Assembly (NCBI GenBank): GCA_963760035.1
Contig: CAVXBR010000011.1
Span: 365-64,364 of the forward strand
DNA: 64,000 nucleotides
Origin: an uncultured Candidatus Micrarchaeota archaeon
Lineage (GTDB): Archaea; Micrarchaeota; Micrarchaeia; Micrarchaeales; Micrarchaeaceae
Direction: 5' to 3'
The translations under genes and the position numbers were made by a program. Every line of letters starts with the position of its first letter. Position 1 is the stretch's first letter. Shown piece by piece: positions 8,150 through 38,422 of the stretch. Under the pieces are notes generated by a model. The model made no database searches. It was not told the origin of the DNA and saw only the letters and a list, made by a program, of their open reading frames with translations.

Positions 8150-8157
8150 TTTTACCA

Positions 8158-8580: not shown

Positions 8581-8597
8581 ATATTTACCTGCTCATC

Positions 8598-10235: not shown

Positions 10236-10303
10236 TTGATTACCTTCTAAGTTTATTCAATGGCAAGTAATAAAACAGTTTCTAAGGCCATAACTTTTAG
10301 AGA

Positions 10304-21105: not shown

Positions 21106-21168
21106 TTTACATTGAGTAGCTGTTTCTCACCTAACTCCTTTATATAACTTTGCTTTCAAAATAGGTAT

Positions 21169-22374: not shown

Positions 22375-22378
22375 TATT

Positions 22379-23230
22379 TTGGTGCTGAAGAGAGTAAGCA
22401 GACAAGGTGTTAGCGTGGAAGAAGATTATCCCCCTTTGATAGGCAACTACCTCAAATTCTGCCAATACAGAGCAGAGATGGAAAAGAGCGGTATCCTAAA
22501 TCTTACAGATGTCGAATGGTTTTACCCCACAACCCTGCTCCCCCTGTTCAACCTTGTACAGCCTAAAGGGTTCACCCATAAACACCTTCTTCCAAAGGAT
22601 AAGACTGCAAGAAGCTATTTTTCTTACATCATGGAGGATAGGGACGTTCATAAAGCGAGCACTGCAATACCGATAATACAGGCCGAGAGACTCAGCAACT
22701 CTTATGTGGATAGGATATACTCTCTGATAATACACCGTGATGGACATCAGAACATCAAGACCGCCATAAAATACATAATAAACGAAATAGTGGCAAATAT
22801 AGACGAGCATTCGGGATGCAACAACTCCATATTCATGGCGCAGAGCTATCCGAAGAAGGGGTTCTCTGAGATCGCATTTTTTGATAATGGCGTAACAATA
22901 CCAGGGCGTTTCAGGGCAGCAGGTAAACTCAGGCCGGATATGAGTGATTCGGATGCGATAAAATGCGCGATTGACGGCGTATCCACCAAGCCAGAAGGTG
23001 GCAGGGGACACGGACTGCCCAGCACAACAAAGATACTCAAGGCCATGAACAGCGATATCCTTGTCGTCTCTGGAGCCGGGGCAGCCTATTTGAACGGAAC
23101 AGATAAATATCTTAAAGAGGATAAGTTGTATATGCTGGGAGCGGATAGGGCGCTGAACGGCACGATTATATCCTTTAGGATATACCATCCCATAATGGCG
23201 GTGAACATATACGAAGGGGGCTACCTATGA
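22379..23230 (+). CDS. GHKL (histidine-kinase-like) ATPase-fold protein
   Basis: N-box-like EIVANIDEHS, G1-like FFDNGVTIPG, G2-like GGRGHGLPS. The start codon is uncertain (TTG/GTG at 22379-22384). Confidence 0.5.
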   Translation: MVLKRVSRQGVSVEEDYPPLIGNYLKFCQYRAEMEKSGILNLTDVEWFYPTTLLPLFNLVQPKGFTHKHLLPKDKTARSYFSYIMEDRDVHKASTAIPIIQAERLSNSYVDRIYSLIIHRDGHQNIKTAIKYIINEIVANIDEHSGCNNSIFMAQSYPKKGFSEIAFFDNGVTIPGRFRAAGKLRPDMSDSDAIKCAIDGVSTKPEGGRGHGLPSTTKILKAMNSDILVVSGAGAAYLNGTDKYLKEDKLYMLGADRALNGTIISFRIYHPIMAVNIYEGGYL

Positions 23231-23547
23231 TACGAAATAGTGTGATAAAGGTAAGCGAGAGAATCGCGGACAACTTGGGTACTCGTAGGGCCGCAGACGA
23301 GCTGTTTGAATTTGTGGAAGCTGCTCCGCAGGAAAGCGTAACTTTGGACTTCAAAGGCGTCACATTTATGAGCAGGTCATTCGCACATCAGTATCTCACC
23401 AATAAGAAAAATGCGGACAAAAAGATTCTGGAGAAAAACATCGCATCTGTGGTAAAGAAGATGATAGCTGTTGTGAAGAAACAGGGCAATAGCAGCTATG
23501 GCAATGGCAGTCCGAGCTCGTTTCCTGTAGCTGCAGAGAGGCTGTAG
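23227..23547 (+). CDS. STAS-like (DUF4325-type) small protein
   Basis: ATGA overlap with the upstream ATPase gene. VTLDFKGVTFMSRSFAHQY resembles the DUF4325/STAS pattern commonly paired with GHKL ATPases. Confidence 0.4.
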   Translation: MIRNSVIKVSERIADNLGTRRAADELFEFVEAAPQESVTLDFKGVTFMSRSFAHQYLTNKKNADKKILEKNIASVVKKMIAVVKKQGNSSYGNGSPSSFPVAAERL

Positions 23548-23589
23548 TTCAATCTTGATTATATCTTTTTGCAGTGGCAGGAAGGGCCC

Positions 23590-24006
23590 TCAGGCCCCTC
23601 CCAGTTTCCTCTGCTTCTCTTGCTCTCTGTCTTTCCTGGCATACCCCTCCATGGCCATCTTCCCGGCCAGAACTGCAACGTCAGTCAGCTCCCTGCTTAT
23701 CGCCAGGTTGTGCTCCCTATCCGGAAAGGAATGCACATCCTTCAGTATATACTCCGCATGGTATATCGCGATATCCGCCTTAGCGAAGAGTTCTTTCGCT
23801 CTCCCGAACTTGAATATTCTTTCCTTCACAAAATATTCCAGGTTCCTTGTCATGTGTATTTGGTAAGGGATCTCCGGGAGAACCCTCGCGAACTGCTGGC
23901 CTTCAACGGGCTGCTCGAACATGGCAGCCAGGCCAATAAGTCTTTCCGAAAACTCGGAAAGCCTATCATAAGCGCTAGATTTGTTGTTTTTGGTCATGAA
24001 TATCAC
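23590..24006 (-). CDS. hypothetical helical protein, paralogue of 24007..24582
   Basis: YDRLSEFSERLIGLAAM...IPYQIHMTRNLEYFVKERIF aligns with YDRLSELSESLFALSSL...MTYTIHAIRTKEYYLRERIF in the neighbouring gene. Confidence 0.4.
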   Translation of the reverse strand: MIFMTKNNKSSAYDRLSEFSERLIGLAAMFEQPVEGQQFARVLPEIPYQIHMTRNLEYFVKERIFKFGRAKELFAKADIAIYHAEYILKDVHSFPDREHNLAISRELTDVAVLAGKMAMEGYARKDREQEKQRKLGGA

Positions 24007-24582
24007 TTATTTGAGTAGCCTCGCAGAGAGCCATGACAGCCAGTCCTGTACCTTTCCTACAATATAATTGGCCGTGCAGGTCTGGTTATCAGAACCACTC
24101 GGAGGTGTGACTGCTGGTTTTTCCCCGTTCAGGCTCATCTGCGTTCCTTTCGTCACGCCATTGCTTGTCCGTCCTTCGGCTGCCATCGTTTTGACGCTGC
24201 CGGCCGCATCCCTTACCAGCTCGCTTACGCTCTCGAGATTGCTGGTGTTCAGATCTTCGTCCGCATCTGTTATGCTTATCACGTACTCCGCATCGGATAG
24301 GGCCTTGTCCACCTCATTGAAGACCACATCCGCTTTCAGCGAAGTGAATATCCTCTCCCTGAGGTAGTACTCCTTGGTCCTGATTGCATGAATCGTATAG
24401 GTCATCCGTGGCGAGACCTTGTCGAACTGGCCTTCCTTTGAAGATAGCCCCAATAGTGAAGACAGGGCAAAGAGGCTCTCCGATAGTTCCGAGAGTCTGT
24501 CGTAAATAGTAGGTTTGTTGTCCAAATAATCACCAAGACGCGCATGGCGACGGCTAACAGTAGTCGTATAGTGGTAGGTCAA
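24007..24582 (-). CDS. hypothetical helical protein, paralogue of 23590..24006
   Basis: See the paralogue. The two genes abut with no gap (stop at 24007, next start at 24006). Confidence 0.4.
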   Translation of the reverse strand: MTYHYTTTVSRRHARLGDYLDNKPTIYDRLSELSESLFALSSLLGLSSKEGQFDKVSPRMTYTIHAIRTKEYYLRERIFTSLKADVVFNEVDKALSDAEYVISITDADEDLNTSNLESVSELVRDAAGSVKTMAAEGRTSNGVTKGTQMSLNGEKPAVTPPSGSDNQTCTANYIVGKVQDWLSWLSARLLK

Positions 24583-24741
24583 AATTGTAGAGAGGTGACT
24601 GAGGTTACGTCGTAATTGCAGAAAGAGCTTAAGCTAACTCATATGACCCCGATACCGATAATGACCCAGAAGAAGTGGCGTTTGTATAGCGTGCCGCGCG
24701 TTTTGTAGTATTATATTGGTGATAAAAGTTAAATAGCTTTC

Positions 24742-25632
24742 TCAGGATTTTGAAATTCCGACTTTGACCTGCTCCTCCAATTTGGCGATCGTGACATTCA
24801 GGTACTCCGCCACCGACTCGTCCAGAGGCATCAGCGCATCTCCGAGGCGGATCGTGGCCTTCTTTGAGGCCTGCTTTTCAGTGACCCCGATCTCGCGCAG
24901 CCCTTTCTTGGTCTCTGAAACCCACTTACCTAGCTCTTTCTCCCTCTTGACCTTCAAGTATTCAACGTACGTGCCCATGGCGCTTATGCCCCACTCGCAT
25001 TTCCTGCCTAGCCTGCTGTTCACCGCCCCGTAGAACTGCATCTCAGCCCTCAGATCACCTATATCAGCACCTATAATCTCCGAAATTTCCGCCGCATGCT
25101 TCAGCCAGAGACCCCTGAACTTGGCGTTGAGGTAGTAGAACTTCCTTCCGCTCGGCATCTCCCTTGTCTCCATGAAGTTGGAGTAGAACATGGCCAGGTT
25201 CTCCAATATGCTCTGGACCGTCATGCCGTTTATGACTATGGACGCTTTCCTCTTCTTCGGCACAGCCTTGTGGAACATGTCCGACAGCGACTTGATCACC
25301 CACTCCTTGTCCTCCGCTGTTTGAGTATACATCGCCTGCGCCTTTTCCAGAGAGTTTGATACCTCCTCAGGTGTCAGCCATTTGCCCCGCCCACTTGACA
25401 GCAGATCGAGCATCATCGTTAGATCTAAGAGTACAATATTGGACTTCACGTTGTCTAGCACCATGCTCAGGTATTCCTTCCTCACCGCCTCCGCATGCAT
25501 CGGGACCCCTTTACTGGCTAGTATTCCCACTATCACCCGCTCCCTGCTCAGCAGGGCTGCAGGCATGCTGCTCGGATTTGATGAATACATCGCAAGCGCG
25601 TCGATCTTTGTTATCGCATCCTTTCCCTTCAT
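24742..25632 (-). CDS. hypothetical protein
   Basis: 296-aa ORF preceded by a TATTTAAAT box at 25664-25673. Confidence 0.4.
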   Translation of the reverse strand: MKGKDAITKIDALAMYSSNPSSMPAALLSRERVIVGILASKGVPMHAEAVRKEYLSMVLDNVKSNIVLLDLTMMLDLLSSGRGKWLTPEEVSNSLEKAQAMYTQTAEDKEWVIKSLSDMFHKAVPKKRKASIVINGMTVQSILENLAMFYSNFMETREMPSGRKFYYLNAKFRGLWLKHAAEISEIIGADIGDLRAEMQFYGAVNSRLGRKCEWGISAMGTYVEYLKVKREKELGKWVSETKKGLREIGVTEKQASKKATIRLGDALMPLDESVAEYLNVTIAKLEEQVKVGISKS

Positions 25633-25663
25633 TTCATCCCTTGGAGATATTATGAATCCAAAG

Positions 25664-25673
25664 GTATTTAAAT
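25664..25673 (-). promoter_or_regulatory. TATA box (GTATTTAAAT) for 24742..25632
   Basis: Lies 32-41 nt upstream of the ATG at 25632 and is flanked by the direct repeat TATGAATCC / TAATGAATCC. Confidence 0.45.
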
Positions 25674-25779
25674 TATCATAATGAATCCTAACTTTTACTA
25701 AAATAAATGGATTTTGATAGAAAGTTATTTATATTAACATTATGATAAATCATTACAACCAAAAGGTTGGGTGAGAAAA

Positions 25780-25968
25780 ATGCCGGATCTCGAAAGACGC
25801 ATCGTCGTCTATCTAGACGATGAACTGTCGAAATGGCTGGATGGAAAAGCCCAGGAGGGCTACAAGAAGGCGGCATTCGTGAGGCGCCTGATGGAGAGAC
25901 AGTGGAAGCATGAGAAGGTCGTCCTGGAGCAAGGTCAGCGAGGGCTGGAGACGGGTGTCGCATCATGA
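25780..25968 (+). CDS. ribbon-helix-helix (CopG-like) protein
   Basis: RRIVVYLDDELSKWLDGKAQEGYKKAAFVRRLME fits the RHH pattern. The ATG at 25780 is preferred over the GTG at 25771. ATGA overlap with the next ORF. Confidence 0.45.
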   Translation: MPDLERRIVVYLDDELSKWLDGKAQEGYKKAAFVRRLMERQWKHEKVVLEQGQRGLETGVAS

Positions 25969-26246
25969 AGGAGCTCGGAGCAGCTGGCCAACCCGCGGGC
26001 GCCACAGGCCCGGTACCGGACTCGGAGGTGGAGGCGTTCGCCGATGCGATAGTCTTCTATCTCGAGCACCCGGAAGCGATCCATGACGAGTTTCTGAAGG
26101 CGTTCATGGACGGCGCGAGGATCCGGGTGGAGCGGCTGGTGAAGGAGCAGGATGCAGTAGAGGAGGCGGCGAAAGCCGCCCCTCCCTCTATCTCATTTAT
26201 GCTAAATTGCATTATCAAATTTGGGTTATGTTTGGTGGGAATATGA
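25965..26246 (+). CDS. hypothetical protein
   Basis: Translationally coupled on both sides (ATGA at 25965 and 26243). Confidence 0.3.
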   Translation: MKELGAAGQPAGATGPVPDSEVEAFADAIVFYLEHPEAIHDEFLKAFMDGARIRVERLVKEQDAVEEAAKAAPPSISFMLNCIIKFGLCLVGI

Positions 26247-28426
26247 AAGTGTCATTCGATAACGGGAAAACCTGGACAGGGGAAGGCCAGGGCTCGGTCA
26301 GCCCTGAGAATGCGGCGAAGAAACTGCGGAATAGGATAAGCGAAACCTTGCAAAAAGGTCTTGGACTTAGGCATGTCAAGCATGCGGGCTGGTTAGCATG
26401 GAGATCTGTTCGTACTTTCATATATTGGGGAATTATGGTATTCGCCATTGCCATAATCTTTTGGCCGGACGCCGGACGCAGTGCAACTGCAGTGACCGAG
26501 GTCTTCCTGATCGGGACGGCACTGTTACTCGTATGGACTTACCTAGACATACGCAAGCACTTCAACATACGCATATTCAAGGGCGAGCAACAGCACGGAA
26601 TACTGATAGGTCAGTCATACAAGCACTTCACTGAGTCTGGCAATCGGTCAGCGGTCGAGGTCGGAGAGGACGCGCCAAGGTACATAGACTACTTAGCGGA
26701 ACCGAACCCGCACGTGATGATGCTGGGCAGCACATCATCCGGTAAGACAACCACCATGCGGAGCTTTATCTCTAGAGTAGCGGTTACTGACAATGTGCCC
26801 TTCTTGGTAATCGACTGGAACGGAGAAAACGAAACGTGGGCCAAGGAGGCCGGCGCTACGCTGTGGAAAGTACCAGAGCACTTCAAGGTGAATCTTTTCA
26901 GGCTCAACGACATATCGAAGGAGGCGCGGGCATCGATCGCTATGGAAAACCTCGCAATAGCCGCCAGGCTCACCGCCCTGCAGGCGACACGGGTGAAGAC
27001 GCACCTGCTGAAGTTCTATTTGGAAGGCAAGGAACCATCATTGTTTGAGCTCTGGAAGGCGGTCTGCGTTGGCAAGGCATCCAAGAACAACGTGCTGGAC
27101 CAAAGGCTGAGAGCGATACAGAGAGTAATAGGAAGCGAACCCGATGAGTTCTGGAACGGGATATTCACTAGAAACAACATCGTCAGCTTACAAGGACTCA
27201 ACGAGAGCGAGAAGTCGCTGGTGTCGTATGCGATATTGCAACGCATTACGGAACTGTTCGACAAGAACCCGAACAAGGACGCCAAGCCGCGACTGCTTGT
27301 TGCAATGGACGAGGCCTGGCAGCCGGCGAAGGGCCAGGAGAGGTACCAGCAGGAGAAGGAGTCCGTAGCCGAGAGGATAGTGAGGTTGGGAAGGAAGTAT
27401 GGGATAGGAATCCTTGTATCAACGCAGCAGCTCGAGGATCTACCGAAGGTATTCTACAACTCCAGCGCGCTGGTGATGATACACCAGCACAGGGAGGCGA
27501 GCTATCACGGTAAGGATATCCTGCAGCTTGATGCATATGAGCGAGAGTATGTGAAGAACGCAGCCCAGGGCGAGATGCTGCTGCTCGACAGGGGCTACGC
27601 GCAGGCGGGGAATCCACACTCCCAGTATATCAAAGTAACTCCCTTGGCTGGCATTGAAACCCAGGCGCTCGCAGGGCTTTCAGAGCCCTATTCGCCAACG
27701 AAGATAACAGAGCAGGAGATGCCGATAGAGATGCATGATGCAGTGTCGGAGGCCAAATCATTACCGGATATACAAGATAGGGTAGAATCCAAACCCAGGA
27801 GCCCGGCAACGGCGAAGCGCAAGCTGACAATGCCGCCCAATGCAATAACGCCGCCCCAATACGCTGGCCTCTTGGCCGTCGAGGCCAACCCCAAGGCCGA
27901 GAAGAACGAGTTGGTAGGCTACATCAAAGACAGGAAGTGGTTTACCAGCCCGACGACGCTGTGGGGTTCCAAGGGCAACCCGGGAATAATCACCGACCTG
28001 CTAGAGAGGGGAATGATAAAGGAGAAAGGAAGGGGATACGCGCTCACTGATACAGGAGCGGCATGGGTGGTACCTGAACTAATGATGGCGAACCAGACGG
28101 ACAAGCTGGGTTCGGAGGAGCACAAGCAGCTGATGGTCAAAACCATAAGGATGCTCCAGTTGCAGCTCATCCTTCCGATTGTAAGCAGGGAAAAGCATTC
28201 GTTCGACATTCTCGGGATACCAGTAAATGAGAAGAAACGAGGATTATGGAATATCAAAAAGGCGAAGGGCTATGAGTGTCAGACTAGCGCGAGGAAAGAT
28301 TCGATAGGTATCAATGCTGGGAAGAGTGAAATGTGGGGAATTCCAACCGTTTGGGTGGCAGACAAGAAGGAGGTAATGGAAGGGATAAAAGAGGTGCAGC
28401 CCGAGAGCAAGTATATGAAATTATGA
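26243..28426 (+). CDS. membrane-anchored FtsK/HerA-superfamily (DUF87-like) P-loop ATPase; candidate DNA translocase/coupling protein
   Basis: Two N-terminal TM helices, Walker A GSTSSGKTT, Walker B LLVAMDEAWQ, and an RLGRKYGIGILVSTQQ motif. The C-terminal extension has a winged-helix-like segment. Start set at the ATG overlapping the upstream stop. Confidence 0.7.
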   Translation: MKVSFDNGKTWTGEGQGSVSPENAAKKLRNRISETLQKGLGLRHVKHAGWLAWRSVRTFIYWGIMVFAIAIIFWPDAGRSATAVTEVFLIGTALLLVWTYLDIRKHFNIRIFKGEQQHGILIGQSYKHFTESGNRSAVEVGEDAPRYIDYLAEPNPHVMMLGSTSSGKTTTMRSFISRVAVTDNVPFLVIDWNGENETWAKEAGATLWKVPEHFKVNLFRLNDISKEARASIAMENLAIAARLTALQATRVKTHLLKFYLEGKEPSLFELWKAVCVGKASKNNVLDQRLRAIQRVIGSEPDEFWNGIFTRNNIVSLQGLNESEKSLVSYAILQRITELFDKNPNKDAKPRLLVAMDEAWQPAKGQERYQQEKESVAERIVRLGRKYGIGILVSTQQLEDLPKVFYNSSALVMIHQHREASYHGKDILQLDAYEREYVKNAAQGEMLLLDRGYAQAGNPHSQYIKVTPLAGIETQALAGLSEPYSPTKITEQEMPIEMHDAVSEAKSLPDIQDRVESKPRSPATAKRKLTMPPNAITPPQYAGLLAVEANPKAEKNELVGYIKDRKWFTSPTTLWGSKGNPGIITDLLERGMIKEKGRGYALTDTGAAWVVPELMMANQTDKLGSEEHKQLMVKTIRMLQLQLILPIVSREKHSFDILGIPVNEKKRGLWNIKKAKGYECQTSARKDSIGINAGKSEMWGIPTVWVADKKEVMEGIKEVQPESKYMKL

Positions 28427-28435
28427 GATGGAGCG

Positions 28436-29546
28436 CTATCGCCAGTCTGCGTCGTCCTGTTTGAGGATGATCTGGTTGAACCGTGAGATAACTCTTTTGC
28501 GAAAGATGTAGGTATCTGCGAATTTGGCGTAGGTCAACCAACCTTCTAGACGTATAAGTCCTTCCGATGATGTTATTTTGTTTTCATTATATCCTTGCCT
28601 GAATTTTTCTAACCGTTTCCAGATCCGTTTCGAGTTGCTCTTCTTCAGTAGCTTGTAGTCACGGAAAACCCTAAATCCCAAAAAGGTGATACCGTGTCCC
28701 AGTTCCATGACTTGAGATTTTTCGGGGTGCAGATCCAGTTTTAGACTGGAGTTAAGGAACTTGTTTATTTCGCCTTTCCATTTTCTGAGGGTGTACTCAT
28801 CCTCGTGAAGTATCACGAAATCGTCGACATATCTGATGTAATACTTGGCCTTTAATTTGTGCTTAACGAAAAGGTCCAGTTCGTGCAGATATACATTTGC
28901 AAAAAACTGAGATGTTAGATTGCCTATCGGCATTCCCTTCCCCGAGGTCTCGGTTTTGTGGTTTTCTATTATCTTTTTTATTAACCAGATGACATTGCTA
29001 TCTTTTATTTTCCGACAGATTAGACGCATTAGCATTTTATGGTCTACGGTGTCGAAGTAGTGGCGTACGTCTGCCTTGAGTACATAGCAGGTATGTCCTT
29101 TGCCCTCTGAAAATTTACGTTGCCCCCCCCCCCAGCAATACAGGTGTTTTATGTGCAGAGCACACTTTTCTCATGAACTCCTCGAACCTCTTTATCGCTT
29201 TATGTGTTCCCTTACCCTTCTGGTTGGCGAAGGAGTCATGGATAAACTCTTTCTCCAAGATTGGGCTTATGATATTGCATAATGCGTGATGTATGACACG
29301 GTCTCTGAAATGAGACGCGCTTATTGTCCTTGTCTTGGGATCCCTTATTACAAATGTGGTTAGTGGCGCCGGAGAGTATGTGAATGTTTCCAATTCCAGT
29401 TTAAGCTGTTTGAGGTTTGCATCGAGATTCGCCTCAAACTCGATCACATAATTCCTGCGGGTCTTCCCCTTCCTTGCCTTCTTGTGGGCCAATTCTAGGT
29501 TTTCGTAAGAGCAGAGCTTTGAATATAGGTTGTTGTATGTCTTCAT
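28436..29546 (-). CDS. diversity-generating retroelement reverse transcriptase, interrupted by a 1-nt frameshift in a G11 run as sequenced
   Basis: ORFs 29115..29684 and 28436..29035 join through a third frame (..GGGQRKFSEGKGHTCYVLKADVRHYFDTVDHKMLM..) if one G of the run is removed. RT motifs present: ADVRHYFDTVDH, the DGR-typical PIGNLTSQFFANVYL ([I/L/V]GxxxSQ), RYVDDFVIL (YxDD) and ITFLGFRV. The start is taken at MKTYNNLY (29546), downstream of the TR. Confidence 0.85.
29123..29133 (-). repeat. homopolymeric G11 (C11 on the + strand) tract inside the RT gene
   Basis: Counted from tgcccccccc cccagc. Removing one G restores a single 369-codon RT frame. Confidence 0.9.
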
Positions 29547-29581
29547 GCTATTACCATGAATCCTGGGTGTGTAAGTAAGGG

Positions 29582-29681
29582 CCATTGGGGCGACATTGTT
29601 AGGCTCGTTGTTCGCATTGAGGTTGAAACGCCTTCCGTAGTTCGAGGCGTTGTTATCCGAGTGGACGTTCAGCGACAACGG
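29582..29681 (-). repeat. DGR template repeat (TR)
   Basis: About 100 bp, homologous to 30030-30129 and 30713-30812. It lies immediately 5' of the RT start. The coding-strand reading is full of AAC codons (PLSLNVHSDNNASNYGRRFNLNANNEPNNVAP). Confidence 0.9.
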
Positions 29682-29830
29682 CACAGTGTAACCGGTCTAC
29701 TGCCCCTGAGGGCTAAACGGCAGCTTCACGATTTCGGCTGTTGCTTACTCAGTGTCGCTGCTTGATCTCATGACTGGCATGTTCGTGACCTACCAGCGCT
29801 ATAGACAGGTGTGTGGTCCTCGGCTTACAC

Positions 29831-29849
29831 CCGCGAGCCTTTCTCGCGG
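29831..29849. other. GC-rich hairpin in the TR-to-target spacer
   Basis: CCGCGAG-ccttt-CTCGCGG, a perfect 7-bp stem with a 5-nt loop. Confidence 0.4.
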
Positions 29850-29908
29850 TTTGCAGGGTTTTCCCCATGCAAGCCCAGGTAGAAGTAGTTTTTATTGCGG
29901 GTTTATAT

Positions 29909-30520
29909 CTACGTTGGTCTTAGCAACCGTTCGAGCTCTGTTATTTTTGCTCCCAAATTGTCGGCGGCCTCCTCTATTTTTCTAAGCAATACGTCTACAG
30001 CTTCTGCTGGCTGCTTGGCTCGGCCCACCACCACCGGGGCGACATCGTAAGGCACGATGCACGCAAAGAGGCCGAAACGCCCCCCGCAGAGCGAGGCGAC
30101 GTCACCCGAGCGGACGCCCAGCGACAACGGGTTTTCGCCATTCCATACACGAACGGTCATTTCTACTGGTGTGCTTTCTGCTTTTTTGACAAGCTCGCCC
30201 TTCTTGTTTATCTTGTATAAATCGAGTTTCTTATTCATTCCTTTTCCTGCCAGGTAGAACCATTTATCCTTCAATGATTCCTTGAGCTTATCGTCCTTTG
30301 TTAGGATGCTAAGCGCCTCTTGGTATGTAAGGAACGTTAGTTGTGCTTTCTCAAGCATACCTTTTGAGGCAGGATAATCCGCCTTTCTTTCTGACATGTA
30401 TAGTGTGACCCCTGTGCTGCTCGTCACTTCCTTGAATCCGAGCAGCTTTCTCCTTGTTTCCTTTATTGTGGCGGTCGCCGTGCTTCCGGACGCTTTCTTA
30501 GATGAGGTTGTACTGGCCAT
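29909..30520 (-). CDS. DGR target (variable) protein 1, probable C-type-lectin/DUF1566-like fold
   Basis: 203 aa. VR1 covers residues about 131-164 (PLSLGVRSGDVASLCGGRFGLFACIVPYDVAPVV). Paralogue of the next gene. The LTYQEALSIL and KWFYLAG segments resemble the DUF1566 pattern (inference). Confidence 0.8.
   Translation of the reverse strand: MASTTSSKKASGSTATATIKETRRKLLGFKEVTSSTGVTLYMSERKADYPASKGMLEKAQLTFLTYQEALSILTKDDKLKESLKDKWFYLAGKGMNKKLDLYKINKKGELVKKAESTPVEMTVRVWNGENPLSLGVRSGDVASLCGGRFGLFACIVPYDVAPVVVGRAKQPAEAVDVLLRKIEEAADNLGAKITELERLLRPT
30022..30034 (-). other. IMH-like GC-rich element at the 3' end of VR1 (coding strand GGTGGTGGTGGGC)
   Basis: An identical 13-mer follows VR2 (30705-30717). 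The TR counterpart (AATGGCCCTTACT) diverges beyond the first five bases. Confidence 0.5.
30030..30129 (-). repeat. DGR variable repeat 1 (VR1)
   Basis: In the 95-bp core (30035-30129 vs 29587-29681) there are 22 mismatches, all at TR adenines (T on the + strand). Confidence 0.9.
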
Positions 30521-30530
30521 AGTATCACTA

Positions 30531-31172
30531 TTAGTTTAGCACTCTCAACAGCTCCTTCAGCGGGGCAGTTGTTCCCGCGACCAAAGCCCCAGCCTGCTCA
30601 GCTGCCTCAACATTTGCAACGCTCGCTTCTACACTTGCACGTAGTTCCGGCGCTATTTTTGGCGCTGTCTCTGGCTTCAGTTCAAGCTTGAAATCCTTGG
30701 CTACGCCCACCACCACCGGGGCGACAGCGTTAGGCCCGAGGTTCGCATAGAGGTAGAAACGCCCCCCGTAGCCCGAGGCGCCGCCATCCGAGCGGACGAA
30801 CAGCGACAACGGGTTCGTGCCTTTCCAAACGTTAACCCTCTCTTCGAGGGACACTTTGTCTGCACCGTCAACAAGCTCTCCCATGTAGTTTATTGTGAAT
30901 AATCCGCCCTTTTCCATTCCCACGCCTGCCACGTAGAACCATTTTCCTTTCAGCGCATTCTTTAGCGCTTCGTCCCTCATCAGTAGAGGCAGCGCCTCCT
31001 GGCGCGCGAGAGGCCTTAGGTTGGCGTCCTCAAGCGTCTTCATAGAATTAGCATGATTGGCTCCTTTATCCGACACGAACAGGGCAACTCCGGTGTTGCC
31101 GGTTATTTGCTTGAACCCCTGCCTTGTTGCGGTTGCTTGCACTGACTCCTTCATTGTCGCAGTCGTCATCAT
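30531..31172 (-). CDS. DGR target (variable) protein 2, paralogue of target 1
   Basis: Start moved to MMTTATMKES (31172) by analogy with target 1. VR2 encodes PLSLFVRSDGGASGYGGRFYLYANLGPNAVAPVV. Confidence 0.8.
   Translation of the reverse strand: MMTTATMKESVQATATRQGFKQITGNTGVALFVSDKGANHANSMKTLEDANLRPLARQEALPLLMRDEALKNALKGKWFYVAGVGMEKGGLFTINYMGELVDGADKVSLEERVNVWKGTNPLSLFVRSDGGASGYGGRFYLYANLGPNAVAPVVVGVAKDFKLELKPETAPKIAPELRASVEASVANVEAAEQAGALVAGTTAPLKELLRVLN
30705..30717 (-). other. IMH-like GC-rich element at the 3' end of VR2
   Basis: Same 13-mer as 30022-30034. Confidence 0.5.
30713..30812 (-). repeat. DGR variable repeat 2 (VR2)
   Basis: In the 95-bp core (30718-30812 vs 29587-29681) there are 18 mismatches, all at TR adenines. 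Confidence 0.9.
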
Positions 31173-31278
31173 TATCACTGTAAAACTAGCGTCGGGTATA
31201 ATATAAATACATTGCGATGAGGCGCCTCCAGCGCGCCGAACCATAACAGATATATCACAGTTCCGCCAAAATAGTATC

Positions 31279-32604
31279 ATGGGCCTTCAAAACCTATTCC
31301 TGGGCGGTGGCAACGGAATAGACATGAACAAGGAGTTCCGCGGAGCGCTCAACCAAATGGAGAATTCACAGGACAACATCTTCATAACCGGGAGGGCAGG
31401 TACAGGAAAATCCACCCTCCTTGAATATTTTAGGTCCGTAACGAAGAAGAACGTCGCTGTCCTCGCACCCACCGGCGTTGCCGCGCTCAACGTCAAGGGC
31501 CAGACGATCCATTCCTTCTTCCACTTCAAGCCTGATATCACCCTTGAGACTGTAAGGAGGGCATACGGCCCCGCGATGTACAAGAACATCGATGCGATCG
31601 TGATAGACGAGATATCGATGGTCCGCGCCGACCTGCTCGACTGCGTTGACAAATTCATGAGGCTGAACGGGAGGAACTCCGAGCTCCCGTTCGGAGGGGC
31701 ACAGATGATCCTGATAGGCGACCTCTACCAGCTTCCGCCGGTGGTCACGAACACGGAAGAGGAGATATTTAGGACTCACTACAAAAGCCCCTACTTCTTC
31801 GACTCACACTCATTTTCCGGTCTCCAGATGAAATACATAGAGCTCAAGAAGCACTACCGCCAGAAGGAACAAGAATTCATAGACCTCCTCAACGCGATAC
31901 GGAACAACTCCATCACCGACCAGCAGATAAGGCAGCTCAACTCACGCGCTGGCATGTCGTTCGTGCCCAAGCCCGGCGAGCACTACGTCACCCTCACGCC
32001 GACCAACAGGCTCGCGGATCAGATAAACAGCGAACGCCTATCGCAGATCAAGAGGCAGACACGCAGCTTCAAGGCCCACATAAGCATCGACTTCGACAAG
32101 CGTGTCCACCCGGCCCCGGACAGGCTGGAGCTGAAGGAAGGAGCGCAGGTGATGATGCTCAACAACGACCGGCACAGGAGATGGGTCAACGGAAGCATGG
32201 GCGAGGTCGTGGAGATGGAGGGTCCTGCGGGCTGGGAGGGCGTGATAACGGTCAGGCTCATAGACGGCTTCGACGTGAAGGTGGAGCCGCACACCTGGGA
32301 CCTCTTCCGTTTCTCCTATGACATCCCAAGCAGGAAGCTTGTCAGCAACAACGTCGGCAGCTTCAGCCAGTATCCGATGATGCTCGCCTGGGCCGTCACG
32401 ATCCACAAGAGCCAGGGCAAGACCTTCGACCGCGTGGTCATTGACCTGGGATCCGGCACATTCGCGCACGGCCAGCTCTACGTTGCCTTGAGCAGATGCA
32501 CGACAATGTCTGGGGTGGTGCTGAAGAGGCCGGTGCAGAGGGAGCACATCATGATGGATGGCAGGGTTGTTGAGTTCCTGAGCAAACGCGTAAAGACGGA
32601 TTAA
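31279..32604 (+). CDS. PIF1/RecD-like superfamily-1 DNA helicase (AAA_30 + UvrD_C-like)
   Basis: Walker A GRAGTGKST, Walker B IVIDEISMV, GDLYQLPPV, AWAVTIHKSQGKTFD, YVALSRC. An alternative start is possible at 31324 (MNKEF). Confidence 0.8.
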   Translation: MGLQNLFLGGGNGIDMNKEFRGALNQMENSQDNIFITGRAGTGKSTLLEYFRSVTKKNVAVLAPTGVAALNVKGQTIHSFFHFKPDITLETVRRAYGPAMYKNIDAIVIDEISMVRADLLDCVDKFMRLNGRNSELPFGGAQMILIGDLYQLPPVVTNTEEEIFRTHYKSPYFFDSHSFSGLQMKYIELKKHYRQKEQEFIDLLNAIRNNSITDQQIRQLNSRAGMSFVPKPGEHYVTLTPTNRLADQINSERLSQIKRQTRSFKAHISIDFDKRVHPAPDRLELKEGAQVMMLNNDRHRRWVNGSMGEVVEMEGPAGWEGVITVRLIDGFDVKVEPHTWDLFRFSYDIPSRKLVSNNVGSFSQYPMMLAWAVTIHKSQGKTFDRVVIDLGSGTFAHGQLYVALSRCTTMSGVVLKRPVQREHIMMDGRVVEFLSKRVKTD

Positions 32605-32610
32605 GCCGAA

Positions 32611-32658
32611 CCGCAGGCACGAGAAGCCCACGCGAAGCGTGCTGGCTTCGAGCTGCGG
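32611..32658. other. extended imperfect hairpin directly after the helicase stop codon
   Basis: CCGCAG-gcacga-GAAGCC-CACGC-gaa-GCGTG-ct-GGCTTC-gag-CTGCGG, with 17 paired positions by eye. Confidence 0.4.
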
Positions 32659-33027
32659 TGAGGCTAGCAGTCGTGGTCTGCCTTCTTATAATTTATCTGG
32701 TGGAGCAAGCTCGACTTAAGCGGCGACGCGCTTAAACCCATGCAGATAAATTCGGAGGAGAGGGCGATGGCGCTGGTTCTGGTGATGGGAATGCCGGTGG
32801 TGGTGCCGGTGCTAGGGCTCATGCTGTTGGCGATGGAGCTTGGACAGGAGGAGGTGGGGTTGGTGGTGAGGGTTAGGCTTAAGCCAGCAGGGCTTAGCGC
32901 CCCTCGCAGCCCGGCTCCGCAAATCGCCAGGGGGCTCGGGGCGCCCGGCTTGGCAGCAGCGTAGATGCTCAAACAGTACTTCTTTGGCTTGGAACTATGT
33001 GGTTATTCCTAAATCTTCTTACAAATT

Positions 33028-33113
33028 CAAGTGTAGTGGTTTCACGAGGTGACTACACATAGAGCTAGACGACAATGCTACACATCGGTCAGGCGTAGTG
33101 GCAAGTGTAGTAG
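33028..33113. repeat. cluster of five GTGTAGT(G/A)G / CTACACAT octamer sites
   Basis: caaGTGTAGTGG 33028-33039, CTACACAT 33053-33060 and 33078-33085, GCGTAGTGG 33093-33101, caaGTGTAGTAG 33102-33113. Lies upstream of the gene starting at 33156. Confidence 0.45.
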
Positions 33114-33155
33114 GGCAAATTATTAAAGCCGGAACTGTCCTTGGATGTTGAGATT

Positions 33156-33599
33156 ATGAAAGTGCTGTTCTTATGCAAAGCGAATGCGGAACGCAGCCAG
33201 ATGGCCGAGACATTCTTCAACTCTCTGTCCAGGAGGAACAAGGCGTTCAGTGCTGGGATTGTGGCAGATAAGAGACATATCGGGTGGCCACCAGGTAGGA
33301 TAGTAACAGAGCTCATGCTAAGCCTAGGTTATAATGAATTCGAGAAAGGTAAACAAAAGCAGTTGACAGAGAAGATGGCCAAGAAAGCCAACATGATTGT
33401 AGTCCTCTTATCAAAAAGCGGGCGGAGGAAGTATGTGCCTGAATACATTAAAAGGTGTAATGATGTGTTATATTGGGATGTCGGCCACTATCCACGTAGC
33501 TTGATGGCTTCGTTTCCTCCAATCACGTATAAGTACCATATCGCTATGTTATTGAAAACAAAAGCGAAGGTTGAGAGGCTTGTCAAGAAAATTGGCTAG
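33156..33599 (+). CDS. low-molecular-weight phosphotyrosine phosphatase / ArsC-family protein
   Basis: N-terminal VLFLCKANAERSQMAE contains the CX5R(S) P-loop. ATG at 33156 preferred over TTG at 33141. Confidence 0.6.
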   Translation: MKVLFLCKANAERSQMAETFFNSLSRRNKAFSAGIVADKRHIGWPPGRIVTELMLSLGYNEFEKGKQKQLTEKMAKKANMIVVLLSKSGRRKYVPEYIKRCNDVLYWDVGHYPRSLMASFPPITYKYHIAMLLKTKAKVERLVKKIG

Positions 33600-33670
33600 C
33601 GTATAGTTATATTTACTGTTGTTTGACGCCGTATAACAGTGAAAGCGAAACGCTTTTTACGACGACAGTT

Positions 33671-33682
33671 CGCCGAGTCCAT
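33671..33682. repeat. candidate attR: exact 12-bp copy of the tRNA-Ala 3' end
   Basis: CGCCGAGTCCAT is identical to 21095-21106. Lies in the intergenic gap between the phosphatase and vapC genes. Confidence 0.4.
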
Positions 33683-33700: not shown

Positions 33701-34141
33701 TTAATATGTTGTTATTTGTCTAAGGGGGTTTGTTACTTTTATCCCGGGAATCTTATTAAAGTCTCTTTCGTTCTCGGTAATTATTTCGGTTATTCCGTTT
33801 TCTTTCATCGTCTCTGATATTAAGGTATCAAGAAATGGTGTTTTAAATTCTTCTGAATTTTTAAGGGCCCTGTCTAAGGTCTCACAATCGTAATTTATTT
33901 TCTTCCAGTTCTGGGATAGAATTAAAGACCTAACAATTATCACTGCTTTATTTGATGGAACATCTAATTTTCGCGTAAGTGAATTAAAAAGCTCTACGAG
34001 AACTTGATTTGACACTACACCGATTATCTCACCGTCTAAAACACGTTGGAATAGTCCCCCACATATCATTCTTTTTTGCCGTTCCGTAAAATCATGTGCA
34101 TAACAGATTATGTTTGTATCAAAGAATAGTTCATCTTTCAT
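33701..34141 (-). CDS. vapC: PIN-domain ribonuclease toxin (VapC-like)
   Basis: FFDTNIICYA (first acidic residue), a conserved E in SNQVLVELFN, and FLDTLI...TENERDF at the C-terminus. Start at MKDELFF overlaps the upstream gene by 11 nt. Confidence 0.65.
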   Translation of the reverse strand: MKDELFFDTNIICYAHDFTERQKRMICGGLFQRVLDGEIIGVVSNQVLVELFNSLTRKLDVPSNKAVIIVRSLILSQNWKKINYDCETLDRALKNSEEFKTPFLDTLISETMKENGITEIITENERDFNKIPGIKVTNPLRQITTY

Positions 34142-34364
34142 ATAATTCACCACGATCAAACTTCCATTTCTTCATCTTTATACCGCTTTTAAACAGTTTT
34201 AATGCTTCGATTTGTACGTCCGAGTCACTTTTTTGCACCCATTCTTTCATTGCTTCTGTAATTGCTTTCCCAAGATAACCTTTCTTTTGCCCATACTTTT
34301 TACTGGCTTGCTTTCTAAATTCGGATGCTACTTGTTCTTCAACATTAATGGTAATCGTTTTCAT
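34131..34364 (-). CDS. vapB: putative antitoxin (VapB-like)
   Basis: 77-aa ORF immediately upstream of and overlapping the PIN gene. TATTTAAAT box 28-37 nt upstream. Confidence 0.45.
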   Translation of the reverse strand: MKTITINVEEQVASEFRKQASKKYGQKKGYLGKAITEAMKEWVQKSDSDVQIEALKLFKSGIKMKKWKFDRGELYER

Positions 34365-34391
34365 TTGATCATATTTATTTAGATAATATAA

Positions 34392-34401
34392 ATATTTAAA
34401 T
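34392..34401 (-). promoter_or_regulatory. TATA box (ATATTTAAAT) for the vapBC pair
   Basis: Position relative to the ATG at 34364 implies a leaderless or near-leaderless mRNA. Confidence 0.45.
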
Positions 34402-34424
34402 CTTTGGTTAATATAAATTATTAT

Positions 34425-36641
34425 TTAGGTATAATCAGGCATTTCAAGAAGTTTATTTTTGTCTACAAATAAATTTAGCCTCTTTTTACCAGAAATTGAT
34501 GTTTCTGCAATAACCTTCCTCTTTTCGTCAATAAGGCAAAGTAGGTATTTTCGTTCTAGGACGAGATGCAGTTTGTAATCTTCTTTCACTGGTATTAGTT
34601 CGTTGATTACCTCCCCAAGAAATCTAAACTCGATATTAAATCTCGAACCGATAAAACCGTCTCCAAACGTCAATTTTAATTCTGTATTTATGAACTCATT
34701 AGAAACGTGTTCCGACTTTATAAAAGGAGGGATAGGAGGCTGCAGGAATGCTTCCGTCTTTATAAAGACGCTCTCTTCTTGTATCTTTTCGCTTCCTTTG
34801 CGTGTAATAAAGCTTAGCGCTCCTACCCTTGAATCAAGAAGCTTGAGTTTTTCTATTACCTTATCTATCTCTATGCCCGGAAATATGAGTTCCTTCGCTG
34901 CTAAATAAGCTGAATCTGGCGCCTGTTTGAGGTACAGTCTGGTTTGACATAGGCGCCTTATTCCTAAATCTATGTCGTTTATGTTATGGGCAAGTAACAT
35001 TAGGCCTATACCTCTCTTTCTAAAATCTTGTATCCGCTGCTTCAGATCTTCAACCGCTGGAGAATCTTCTTCTTTGAATATTATCTGCGCTTCTTCCACG
35101 CAGATAAGCATCCTTAACTTGTCATCACCAAACGTGTCAAAACCTGATGCAATGGCGTAAATCTGGTTTAGCACAAGGGCATAAAGGAATGATCTTGTTG
35201 CAATGCTGGTAGATGAAACATCAAATACCGCACCGCCGACTAGCAACTCTTCAAATTTTACACCGTCTTTCATAGAATAGTTAGGATTGTTTAATATTAT
35301 CCTCAAACTTTCTAACGCCGCCTTTATGTTTTCGCCGTGTTTTGTATACTTAACACCTGTATTTGTTCGTTTACCGTGTAGACAGATTATTGATTCTTCT
35401 ATTTCATCGTAAACATCGATCGGATTAGGGGTTGAGGTAGTTTGGTATATCTTCCTAAATGCATTTAGCATACATTTTTCCATGGGCCTTTTGTAGGGTC
35501 CAGCGCCAGATGCAGACGAAAGGATTATTGCCAGATCCTGGCAAAATTTTTCCCTTTTCGTGTTAGTTGGACACCTAAAGAAGTTTATTGCAATCGAATC
35601 GGAAAAGAGTTTTATCAGATTCATACCGTGAGAGATTGCAAAGCCGTTCCATTCTTCTGTGGGGGCAAGAATAAACAATGGGCAACAACCAGAGTTAATT
35701 ATCCTATCAGATAAGTGCATGGCTTCCATAGTTTTTCCCGAACCAGGCAAACCAGTGATAAGGAAACCCAAGTTAAAGGATGCTGGTTCCACACATATAT
35801 CGGTCTGGCTTTCGGATACTCCATCGTTCATCAATTTTCCTATAGGTATGCCATTTGAGGTATGCCCGGTTGGGTTTAATTTTATAGTTCTCAGCACTCT
35901 TGCTCCATAGAGCTTAATGAATTGGGCGCAATACTTGGTTCCAAACGGGAAAGAACGGATTTTGGATATTTTAGGCATGATTGAGCTAAAGCCTTCTGCA
36001 ATAAACTCAGTTTCGGAAAGATTAGAGACTCTATCGTTTAGATAGGTTTTCATATTCTTTGCATCTAAACTGTACAATAAGAACATTTTGTAGAGTAAAT
36101 TGTTCTTAAGGAGAGCCTCGTTTATGGAATCAAGTATATTTTTCGCTATTAGAAGTTCGTCGGAGTCTTTGTAAAGATCCCTATGAACTGACGATGGACC
36201 AAAAAGTCCACGGATGCCCTGAGAGGTTGATTTTGTCTCACGCATGTCCTTTGAGCTTAGGAGGGATTCGGCATATCGTTTTGCAAATTCGATTTCTTTT
36301 TCTTTAACGGTTATAAAGGCTAGGCATAGAAAATTTTCTGATAGATCAGCGGCAAATAGGTCGTGAAAGGCATCATTGTCTTCTTCACTAATTCGGTAAA
36401 ATGAAAGCGCCTTGAGTTTACGTCCTTTTAAATTTTCGAAATCGCCGACTTTTTCAGAAACAAATCCAGGTATTGAGGAACTTAGGGAGTATATCAGCTC
36501 GTCTTTTTCATCATCAATCCAGAGGAGGGTTCGGTGCAGTTTGGTGTCGTATATAATAGCAAAATTGTTCCTGCCCAGCGTTTCGAAAAAGTGCTCTGAC
36601 TCAAATAGGTCAGGAACACTCAAAACTGCAAAAAATCCCAT
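34425..36641 (-). CDS. large HerA/VirB4/TraG-like P-loop ATPase (DUF87-like)
   Basis: Walker A GLPGSGKTM, Walker B MLICVEEAQIIF, KRGIGLMLLAHN motif. 738 aa with no TM helix. Confidence 0.65.
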   Translation of the reverse strand: MGFFAVLSVPDLFESEHFFETLGRNNFAIIYDTKLHRTLLWIDDEKDELIYSLSSSIPGFVSEKVGDFENLKGRKLKALSFYRISEEDNDAFHDLFAADLSENFLCLAFITVKEKEIEFAKRYAESLLSSKDMRETKSTSQGIRGLFGPSSVHRDLYKDSDELLIAKNILDSINEALLKNNLLYKMFLLYSLDAKNMKTYLNDRVSNLSETEFIAEGFSSIMPKISKIRSFPFGTKYCAQFIKLYGARVLRTIKLNPTGHTSNGIPIGKLMNDGVSESQTDICVEPASFNLGFLITGLPGSGKTMEAMHLSDRIINSGCCPLFILAPTEEWNGFAISHGMNLIKLFSDSIAINFFRCPTNTKREKFCQDLAIILSSASGAGPYKRPMEKCMLNAFRKIYQTTSTPNPIDVYDEIEESIICLHGKRTNTGVKYTKHGENIKAALESLRIILNNPNYSMKDGVKFEELLVGGAVFDVSSTSIATRSFLYALVLNQIYAIASGFDTFGDDKLRMLICVEEAQIIFKEEDSPAVEDLKQRIQDFRKRGIGLMLLAHNINDIDLGIRRLCQTRLYLKQAPDSAYLAAKELIFPGIEIDKVIEKLKLLDSRVGALSFITRKGSEKIQEESVFIKTEAFLQPPIPPFIKSEHVSNEFINTELKLTFGDGFIGSRFNIEFRFLGEVINELIPVKEDYKLHLVLERKYLLCLIDEKRKVIAETSISGKKRLNLFVDKNKLLEMPDYT

Positions 36642-36642
36642 A

Positions 36643-36750
36643 TTATATCACACCAACTACAATTATGAAAACCAGCAAAGCAACAAAGATGGATAGAAGT
36701 ATAAATGGCCTTGATCTGAAGCTATGAAATTCTTTTATATTCTTTAACAT
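36643..36750 (-). CDS. 35-aa single-TM micro-protein (below the ORF-track cutoff)
   Basis: Hand translation: MLKNIKEFHSFRSRPFILLSIFVALLVFIIVVGVI*. Its ATG overlaps the upstream stop (ATGTTAA), and its stop lies 1 nt before the next ATG. Confidence 0.35.
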   Translation of the reverse strand: MLKNIKEFHSFRSRPFILLSIFVALLVFIIVVGVI

Positions 36751-37760: not shown

Positions 37761-38422
37761 TTTGTCACCGTTTTTTCGAAAATGAAAGCTGTGGCCGCTT
37801 TATACGCTTCTGTGGTAGTTCCGATTATCTTGGGAAGGGACTCGGCGGTAGGGTCTTTTAGTGCCATCTTGGTCATTGCAGCGGCTATGGCGTCTTTTGA
37901 GAATTTTTTCAGGCACTCGTTTTCCAGTTCAAGATCTTTGCATTTGCGCTGGAACTCCAGAGTTTTAAAAGATAATGAACAGTTCATCGCTGAAAGGGTT
38001 TTCACTTTTCTGATTAGTAGCTCGCTGTTTTCTATTTTCCCTTCAGTGTAGGGTATCTCTTCCATGTATTCAACAAGCGCTTCCATAAAGCTAGGATAAA
38101 GTGATGACAGTTCGGGATCATAGAAATCTGCCGAATAGGCCAAGATAGAGAGGAATTTTATGAGATTTTTAGCGTATTCTTTCGCCGAGCATCTGTTGAA
38201 GCAGTAGTTAAAGGTCAGTCTATTTCCCGTTACTTGCAGTTCGGAAGTGCTGACGCCATCCGACTCAATTATTGAGAAGGTCCTGTTATCGCCTGCCTTA
38301 GTCATGCGAAGGAATGGAGCAGATTGGAGATGGGTGTAAAATTGGGCTATTTGAACCTTAAACTTGCCGCTCACAAAGAAAGACGATTTAAGCCCAAATT
38401 CGAGCTTTTTAGGCGCTTTCAT
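37757..38422 (-). CDS. hypothetical soluble protein of the transfer operon
   Basis: 221-aa ORF overlapping both neighbours. Confidence 0.4.
   Translation of the reverse strand: MKAPKKLEFGLKSSFFVSGKFKVQIAQFYTHLQSAPFLRMTKAGDNRTFSIIESDGVSTSELQVTGNRLTFNYCFNRCSAKEYAKNLIKFLSILAYSADFYDPELSSLYPSFMEALVEYMEEIPYTEGKIENSELLIRKVKTLSAMNCSLSFKTLEFQRKCKDLELENECLKKFSKDAIAAAMTKMALKDPTAESLPKIIGTTTEAYKAATAFIFEKTVTK

Follow-up and report, generated by a model that had tools for sequence, protein, structure and literature searches.

A recently active diversity-generating retroelement in a Micrarchaeota-like archaeon, with a guanine run interrupting its reverse transcriptase gene

Among DPANN archaea, diversity-generating retroelements (DGRs) are known from Nanoarchaeota, Pacearchaeota and Woesearchaeota (Paul et al. 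2015, PMC4372165; Paul et al. 2017 cited in PMC6349945). We analysed a 64-kb stretch of the genome of an uncultured Candidatus Micrarchaeota archaeon (contig CAVXBR010000011.1; the whole stretch is hereafter the window), which carries a DGR cassette on its minus strand in the order target gene 2 with variable repeat (VR) 2, target gene 1 with VR1, a TATA-like box, an RT-16 RNA, the template repeat (TR) and the reverse transcriptase (RT) gene. This DGR is a new member of the known DPANN group, and it is unusual in the repeat-gated RT that recurs in many relatives and in the position of RT-16 5' of the TR. We consider it highly probable that the cassette is a functional, recently active DGR on an integrase-bearing island, and that expression of its RT is gated by a run of eleven G residues (G11). 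The repeat-gated RT is potentially a new part.

The locus resembles the described DPANN DGRs in the clade of its RT, in the order target-TR-RT and in a predicted C-type-lectin-like target fold. As far as the portions of those descriptions that we consulted extend, it also shares a G/C-rich candidate initiation of mutagenic homology (IMH) followed by a small candidate hairpin with a three-base loop. It differs from them in its Micrarchaeota-like host, in a target family without a Pfam model, and in that no Avd-like open reading frame (ORF) was found. Neither a repeat-interrupted RT nor an RT-16 domain is mentioned in the portions of the DPANN literature covered by our search, and the same search returned no report of a DGR with a frameshift, homopolymer, phase variation, simple repeats or poly-G (the survey of Paul et al. 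2017 lay outside it).

The DGR of Bordetella phage BPP-1 (mtd, avd, TR, brt) is similar in its adenine-specific transfer, AAY codons, IMH/IMH* logic and, as predicted here, a lectin-fold target. However, BPP-1 has one target instead of two and requires Avd, of which no counterpart was found here, and the structured RT-16 RNA lies 5' of the TR, on the opposite side from the 3' Sp/RT-10 element of BPP-1. An Avd or HRDC accessory protein is not universal among DGRs.

Simple-sequence contingency loci of Campylobacter, Neisseria and Haemophilus undergo poly-G or tetranucleotide phase variation (PMC6321876, PMC11868660). The RT genes described here are like these loci in having a sense-strand poly-G of 9-12 nt or a dinucleotide repeat within an ORF, the length of which sets the frame, and in having both on and off alleles among relatives, with length polymorphism between near-identical genomes (seen in relatives only). 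They differ in that the gated gene is a mutator, the DGR RT, in that the hosts are archaeal and the off state is over-represented, and in that switching within a population is here a prediction.

Programmed slippage or frameshifting, as in insertion sequence (IS) transposases and dnaX, typically uses A or T runs and a fixed direction of shift. The likeness to these systems lies in a stably out-of-frame gene with a homopolymer at the junction, which would yield a low level of a potentially harmful enzyme, whereas the runs here are of G or GA and the offsets are mixed. Regulation of DGR mutagenesis is poorly understood, and uncontrolled activity would erase useful variants. A repeat that held the RT out of frame in elements that still diversify would be a simple, heritable and reversible control. 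If this is true, targeted hypermutation would itself be under a contingency repeat, as a mutator gated by a repeat.

Adenine-only repeats, target genes and their turnover

A repeat search recovered one three-copy family of 100-nt direct repeats in the window (29582-29681, 30031-30130 and 30713-30812). The three repeats of about 100 bp noticed in a first-pass annotation of the letters therefore stand, with VR1, placed there at 30030-30129, one base off. Comparisons below use contig L001, a 6.3-kb contig from another sample that holds P0001, the closest homologue of target 1 (93% identical). Repeats and targets are as follows.

29582-29681, minus strand: template repeat (TR), with 26 mutable adenines and two more in the IMH* boundary; the L001 copy is identical
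30031-30130, minus strand: VR1; 24 of the 28 TR adenines differ here, and none of the 72 non-A positions does
30713-30812, minus strand: VR2; 20 of the 28 TR adenines differ here, and none of the 72 non-A positions does
30023-30043, minus strand: candidate IMH of VR1, GTCGCCCCGGTGGTGGTGGGC; the same element lies at 30705-30725 for VR2
29909-30520, minus strand: target gene 1, 203 amino acids, with a predicted divergent C-type-lectin-like domain
30531-31172, minus strand: target gene 2, 213 amino acids, a paralogue of target 1 with the same start in L001

On the minus strand the TR is composed of 28 A, 32 C, 22 G and 18 T. When mismatches were tabulated by TR base, a check that had been proposed along with the repeats, all of them fell on A and none on the other three bases; with both VRs pooled, 44 of 56 A comparisons differed as against 0 of 144 non-A comparisons. 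Substitutions in VR1 and VR2, respectively, were A>G 15 and 13, A>T 8 and 5, and A>C 1 and 2. The IMH*/IMH boundary is formed by the last five nucleotides of the TR, AATGG, whose AA is replaced by GG in each of the four VR copies seen. Leaving these five out, the TR holds 26 adenines, of which 22 differ in VR1 and 18 in VR2, and 69 invariant non-A positions. A count made earlier by hand on this 95-nt core was thus reproduced exactly, and the TR and VR peptides read at that time are all present in the translations.

Eight AAC and two AAT codons occur in the TR. No substitution of a TR adenine can reach a stop codon, and the 15 variable codons allow about 4e14 possible peptides. VR1 spans codons ~130-163 of the 203 in target 1, that is, its C-terminal part.

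Tandem paralogues, as targets 1 and 2 are (46% identical), could in principle contain ordinary diverged paralogous segments or gene-conversion tracts that owe nothing to a DGR. The base-by-base table refutes this explanation, which we regard as vanishingly improbable. Its partition of changes between A and non-A positions is complete, the third copy is non-coding and lies beside an RT gene, and 37 differences between strains all fall on the 56 TR-A-aligned sites among 4271 (chance ~3e-77).

Those strain differences come from L001, which aligns without gaps to window positions 29412-33682 with 40 differences in 4271 nt (99.06% identical). VR2 holds 21 of them, VR1 holds 16, and only 3 lie elsewhere, in ~4.1 kb of flank. 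All 37 VR differences are at positions aligned with TR adenines, and the TR is the same in both contigs. Because 37 of the 40 differences are at TR-A positions of the VRs, the element has been very recently active on both targets. Past activity, which had been proposed from the divergence of the VRs, is borne out and can be upgraded to recent activity.

The sister lineage L002, with a target 59% identical and an RT out of frame at a G12 run, gave a similar picture. L002 and L088 have 8 differences in 2795 nt, all inside one VR region, and L002 and L003 have 10 differences in 2005 nt, all inside the other. As a separate observation, Logan contig L046 (run ERR12036783) ends inside VR1 (L046:1-20 corresponds to about 30044 in the window), an end that may reflect VR heterogeneity in the reads.

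All four VRs, two in the window and two in L001, have the same candidate IMH, from which the 3' end of the TR, GTCGCCCCAATGGCCCTTAC, diverges. This element encodes APVVVG, which is invariant across the target family. By analogy with known elements, this segment would act as the IMH. A small GGC-NNN-GCC hairpin after it is likewise a candidate; a search for hairpins 3' of the VRs in the window gave nothing beyond short, weakly supported stems.

Neither target had a match in Pfam, NCBIfam or PHROG. The family has 55 database homologues, of which the named ones are from Micrarchaeota or Micrarchaeaceae. In an alignment of 56 sequences, a hypervariable VR region is set within a conserved scaffold, PLSLxVxSDxxAxxxGRRFxLxAxxxPxxVAPVVVG, that ends with APVVVG. 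An unannotated lectin-like family in Micrarchaeota is thereby defined as a DGR target. The AlphaFold2 model of target 1, built on the 56 sequences, has a predicted local distance difference test (pLDDT) score of 92.6 and a predicted template modelling (pTM) score of 0.79, and adds to the domain a helix at the N-terminus and a long one at the C-terminus (residues 172-200), the latter of which may form a coiled coil. No signal peptide or transmembrane segment was evident in the targets by eye, no predictor having been run. Sequence matches of the target in the PDB, to ribosomal L31 and L1 only, were spurious and were discarded.

The reverse transcriptase clade and the RT-16 RNA

The TR lies just upstream of the RT gene, and the stretch between target 1 and the TR holds a structured RNA. 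Features of this part of the cassette are listed below.

28436-29546, minus strand: DGR RT gene, in two reading frames in the assembly (ORFs 29115-29684 and 28436-29035)
29123-29133, minus strand: G11 homopolymer (C11 on the plus strand), between RT motifs 1 and 2
29683-29879, minus strand: structured non-coding RNA domain, Rfam RF03019 (RT-16 RNA), adjoining the TR directly on its 5' side
29902-29908, minus strand: TATA-like box ATATAAA, ~26 nt upstream of the RT-16 5' end

Deletion of one G from the G11 run yields an RT of 369 amino acids that starts at the ATG at 29546 and matches PF00078 (9.5e-22). Both of the motifs read in the first-pass annotation, PIGNLTSQ (the DGR-type [I/L/V]GxxxSQ of motif 4) and YVDD, were found in this repaired RT, and their columns are invariant in 51 relatives. 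The nearest relatives are in Micrarchaeota metagenome-assembled genomes (L004, L024 and L033, at 65%, 62% and 58% identity; one-genome-per-species contigs), and the next are in Woese-, Pace- and Nanoarchaeota. Sequence upstream of the RT was long enough in 125 related loci. In 96 of them a TR-like repeat sits immediately upstream of that gene and recurs elsewhere, and in 81 of these 96 at least 80% of the mismatches are at TR adenines. Because of these upstream, A-biased repeats in related loci, the RT can be placed by sequence in a genuine DPANN DGR clade.

The description of the locus as a complete DGR is correct as to the A-only differences between TR and VRs and the TR just upstream of a motif-bearing RT. 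It goes too far in that the RT is out of frame, a conserved trait of the clade and not a flaw to be tacitly mended, and no Avd or other accessory gene was found, and it missed both the RT-16 RNA 5' of the TR and the mobile-element context. As a side observation, six RTs of the clade (P0133, P0149, P0157, P0159, P0161 and P0169; 556-579 amino acids) carry an extra fused PF14493 domain.

With cmscan, the RT-16 match in the window scored 47.8 bits (E 2.8e-6) over model positions 1-158, the full length, and included the conserved GAGUA and GAA blocks. The gathering score is reached in 31 related loci, with 50-103 bits (L002 at 50.1 and 30 others at 58-103). In each comparable locus the 3' end of RT-16 is within a few nucleotides of the TR start (for example L038:299-457 and L013:3728-3879). 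Related loci with differing TRs conserve the 224-nt spacer that lies between target 1 and the TR, and RNAalifold gave a multi-branched fold of 33 pairs, 14 of them with compensatory changes.

Weinberg et al. 2017 placed RT-16 only 'near RT genes', tied RT-10 alone to a DGR, and speculated that further RT motifs might belong to DGRs (PMC5737381). Compared with RF03019 as described, RT-16 here abuts the 5' end of the TR in 32 loci, a placement that gives this orphan RNA family a likely role. No role for RT-16 in DGRs was found in the literature searched, in which later papers merely list it. RT-16 could be a scaffold for RT binding or a stop for cDNA synthesis. On the Nanoarchaeota contig L014, RT-16 copies occur at 671-888 and 3671-3896, ~3 kb apart, and this pair hints at another TR or another cassette there.

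In 11 of 12 related loci, an A/T-rich, TATA-like box precedes the RT-16 5' end by 24-32 nt. From its position it would be a promoter element, and the transcript therefore probably starts at RT-16. On the paradigm of BPP-1, the transcript would run from RT-16 through the TR into the RT mRNA, with the RT start ~36 nt beyond the TR, and would be reverse-transcribed with misincorporation opposite A. The cDNA would then replace VR1 or VR2, guided by the G/C-rich 3' IMH that is present in the VRs and not in the TR.

The G run and readings of the RT frame

G11 is the sole homopolymer of at least 8 nt in the 64-kb window, the next longest G/C run being 6. It displaces motifs 2-7, the downstream two-thirds of the RT, from the reading frame, which would be intact with G10 or G13. 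The upstream frame ends with LLGGGAT and a stop, and the downstream frame, which starts QRKFSEGKGHTCYVLKADVRHYFD, needs one G less or two more. An independent Logan assembly has the same G11; contig L001 ends short of the run.

No ATG, GTG or TTG occurs in the downstream frame ahead of the motif-A Asp (LKADVRHYFD), and the ORF of that frame starts after this residue. An independently translated C-terminal piece would lack the motif-A Asp because there is no upstream start codon, and a split-protein model with two RT polypeptides was rejected on this ground. In six out-of-frame RT genes neither half contains an internal stop, and the proportion of nonsynonymous differences (pN) is 0.15-0.35 as against 0.80-0.96 for synonymous differences (pS), in the downstream half as much as in the upstream. 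Both halves are thus under purifying selection, and the out-of-frame RTs are not decaying pseudogenes.

A census at the DNA level, independent of ORF calls, covered 42 genome loci and 80 metagenome loci. In these frame-unbiased samples about 1 in 5 RT genes is split, and every G run of at least 9 nt inside an RT is out of frame, in 14 distinct lineages that include the window and L127. A sizeable share of the DPANN DGRs would therefore be overlooked, or classed as dead, by DGR surveys that demand an intact RT ORF. The interrupted sites are listed here.

Window 29123-29133; L002:3496, L024:4411, L033:4408, L026:4708, L028:1947, L114:1129, L119:741, L120:2304, L122:992, L123:1587, L125:3579, L126:3544 and L127:6391: out-of-frame poly-G of 9-12 nt in DGR RTs
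L037:1680, L038:1116, L039:4581, L118:1064, L121:912 and L124:2244: out-of-frame (GA)n in RT loops, read as RERERE

The G12 of L002 is in the same place as the window's G11 and has the same offset. Other runs out of frame at the site are G12 in L088 as in L002, G10 in L024, G9 in L033, G11 in L119 and L120, and G9 in L127 and L128 (two samples). The shift needed is -1 in some lineages and +1 in others. Six (GA)n repeats of at least 5 units are out of frame as well, and other (GA)n repeats of 4-5 units are in frame. Among runs of up to 8, all are in frame except the G6 of L034/L115.

The repeats occupy three loops of the RT: between motifs 1 and 2, before GMPLGNLTSQ, and after YVDD. The RT accounts for 19% of the 705 kb of related loci and contains 27 of their 28 long simple repeats; all of the long RT repeats are G or GA on the sense strand. 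Intact homologues have GGG, GGGG, GGGGG or RERERE in the corresponding loop. In-frame long runs are known from L134 (G12) and L135/L136 (G11), and L131 has an interrupted run, GGGGGCGGCGGAGGG. Over 7 kb, L026 and L099 differ by nothing but a 2-nt indel at the run. L137 (1172-2293) has the same G9 as the split RT of L033 (4330-4492) and is intact, its frame having been restored by a +1 insertion (AGG>AGGG) 22 nt upstream of the G9, with 7 residues rewritten.

A protein search with the RT N-terminus returned 120 matches, all of 122-223 amino acids, a count that is unusable as a ratio because the search skipped at least 27 full-length relatives of equal score. Of the short proteins, 115 end before motif A, just past GGG, RERE or PPP, and both wrong frames occur. 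More than 100 protein clusters, from many projects, are truncated N-terminal RT fragments. Truncated forms are thus very common in the clade, and the PPP signatures suggest poly-C runs.

In addition, signatures of (GA)n/RERERE or PPP were noted at frame breaks in proteins P0210, P0225, P0251, P0218, P0224 and P0241. RTs of the clade are also disrupted by a 19-bp tandem duplication (L019:4060-4100), a single-base indel (L031:1631, in L031/L107) and a 59-nt insertion with internal inverted repeats (L035:1486-1545).

The frame break would be trivial if G11 were a sizing error of sequencing or assembly and the RT of an otherwise ordinary DGR were intact. Long G runs are error-prone, a single base would suffice, and the sole mismatch between L101 and L102 is 5 nt from a run. 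However, two assemblers agree on G11, and the site is out of frame also in L002/L088, L024, L033, L119, L120 and L127/L128. Offsets of both +1 and -1 occur, (GA)n repeats behave alike, runs of up to 8 are in frame, the >100 truncated clusters stem from many projects, and L137 regained its frame at a second site while retaining G9. Because the pattern recurs across assemblers, samples, repeat types and offsets, assembly error is an unlikely cause, and we give this account little credence.

Still less credible is a dead RT pseudogene, with the VR differences as relics or as the work of another RT in trans. This account is contradicted by VR turnover and by selection on both RT halves: 37 VR sites have changed as against 3 substitutions in ~4.1 kb of flank, the L002 lineage behaves likewise, and both halves have stayed stop-free under purifying selection over saturated synonymous divergence. 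Nor was a second RT seen in the window in an ORF and Pfam look at the larger ORFs, which was not exhaustive. What speaks for a dead RT is the broken consensus ORF, the absence of a detected accessory gene and the location on a mobile island.

We therefore return to a gated RT. Since the consensus frame is broken and the downstream ORF has no start before the motif-A Asp, full-length RT would have to be made from a minority of templates or transcripts in which the run is shorter by one G or longer by two. These might arise through slipped-strand events in DNA (phase variation), or else RNA polymerase or the ribosome might slip on the run. Under either mechanism the supply of RT would be low, and mutagenesis would be rare and stochastic, not constitutive.

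In the first of these variants, the G run would be a DNA contingency locus at which slipped-strand mispairing toggles the RT, with the off state dominant and rare on cells diversifying. Poly-G and dinucleotide repeats are classic substrates for phase variation, and the loops concerned also show (GA)n and poly-C signatures. Relatives include either wrong frame as well as long runs that are in frame, L026 and L099 differ by the run-length indel only, and interrupted, 'locked-on' runs exist (L131). It is harder to reconcile with this variant that none of the 14 long G runs of the unbiased samples is in frame where one third would be expected (binomial about 0.003), that the same off frame is kept in diverged lineages (the window and L002; L033, P0206 and P0243), and that the L137 lineage mended its frame at a second site and not at the run. 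We hold DNA phase variation to be a tentative explanation, with a little less than an even chance of being right.

That 0 of 14 long runs are in frame speaks instead for programmed recoding, in which RNA polymerase slippage or ribosomal frameshifting on the run would give some full-length RT. So does an out-of-frame state conserved over saturated synonymous divergence with the downstream half selected, and so do the restriction of all repeats to G or GA on the sense strand and the 0-frame stop two codons past the run in the window and L002. On the other hand, in-frame long runs exist, and some loci need a shift of -1 nt while others need one of +1 nt, with a distance to the 0-frame stop that is not conserved; the mixed directions and unconserved distance argue against a single, fixed-direction ribosomal frameshift. 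To our knowledge, slippage on (GA)n is not an established mechanism. Recoding, too, is a possibility that we would place somewhat short of even. A fixed +1 ribosomal frameshift at GGG-GCA-ACG-TAA was considered and is not general, as other loci need the opposite shift and have no nearby stop.

For the clade as a whole, we see an even chance that the RT in a large group of DPANN DGRs is kept behind a hypermutable repeat of poly-G, poly-C or (GA)n, which sits in any one of three loops that tolerate it, such that hypermutation is stochastic, whether the switch is phase variation or transcriptional or translational slippage, and that RT-16 is the 5' domain of the template RNA.

Several observations weigh against a functional DGR with a gated RT. 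The run length in the window, the VR heterogeneity and the RT product were judged from assembled sequences alone, and long G runs are hard to size by Illumina sequencing. No Avd or accessory gene was detected in the window by Pfam on small ORFs (including PF05635), by tblastn or by an ad-hoc hidden Markov model from three Avd proteins of the clade, whereas some clade members do have an Avd-family gene (PF05635) beside the RT (L077:359-817, L134:338-703 and L135:2222-2578). The RT-16 match in the window is just below the Rfam gathering threshold of 50 bits, and the on:off ratio among relatives is uncertain on account of the full-length proteins that the N-terminal search skipped. Within the analysis, the host phylum was read from the names given to homologues. 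As to the target, all of the top 50 Foldseek matches in the PDB were C-type lectin domains but weak ones (best E 0.017, TM 0.33-0.5), and a viral structure library again gave C-type lectins, weakly. Because these structural matches are weak, we call the modelled fold 'C-type-lectin-like' only, an assignment that is not proven.

Genomic context of the cassette

The cassette is flanked by genes and repeats of a putative mobile element, listed below.

21095-33682: putative integrated element of ~12.6 kb with the DGR, delimited by integrase, attachment (att) repeats and the end of L001 homology
21034-21105: tRNA-Ala(cgc), followed by the tyrosine integrase
21095-21106: attL, in the 3' end of the tRNA-Ala, with attR at 33671-33682; 12-nt direct repeat CGCCGAGTCCAT
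21169-22374: tyrosine integrase, PF00589 at 7.6e-20
26207-28426: HerA/FtsK-like ATPase
31279-32604: PIF1/Dda-like helicase
33141-33599: low-molecular-weight (LMW) phosphatase

Homology with L001 stops exactly at 33682, beyond which the flanks differ. Because of the tRNA and integrase, the att repeats and this end of homology, the DGR appears to ride on an integrated element of ~12.6 kb. Outside it, RtcB, an ammonium transporter, an eRF1-like protein and an aldehyde dehydrogenase are encoded, and these genes look chromosomal. A comparison of the island with PHROGs gave integrase, helicase and weak ATPase matches only and no capsid, and a viral identity of the island was set aside on this ground. 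The cassette is not always on such an island, since the relative L127 carries the same cassette between the PriX and PCNA genes.

Elsewhere in the window, a 738-residue ORF without a Pfam match lies in the 34000-38000 stretch and adjoins a second HerA/TraG-like ATPase (38409-39740). This stretch and 6000-12000 have a G+C content of 0.38-0.43, compared with about 0.50 elsewhere, and these low-G+C stretches may be further foreign DNA.

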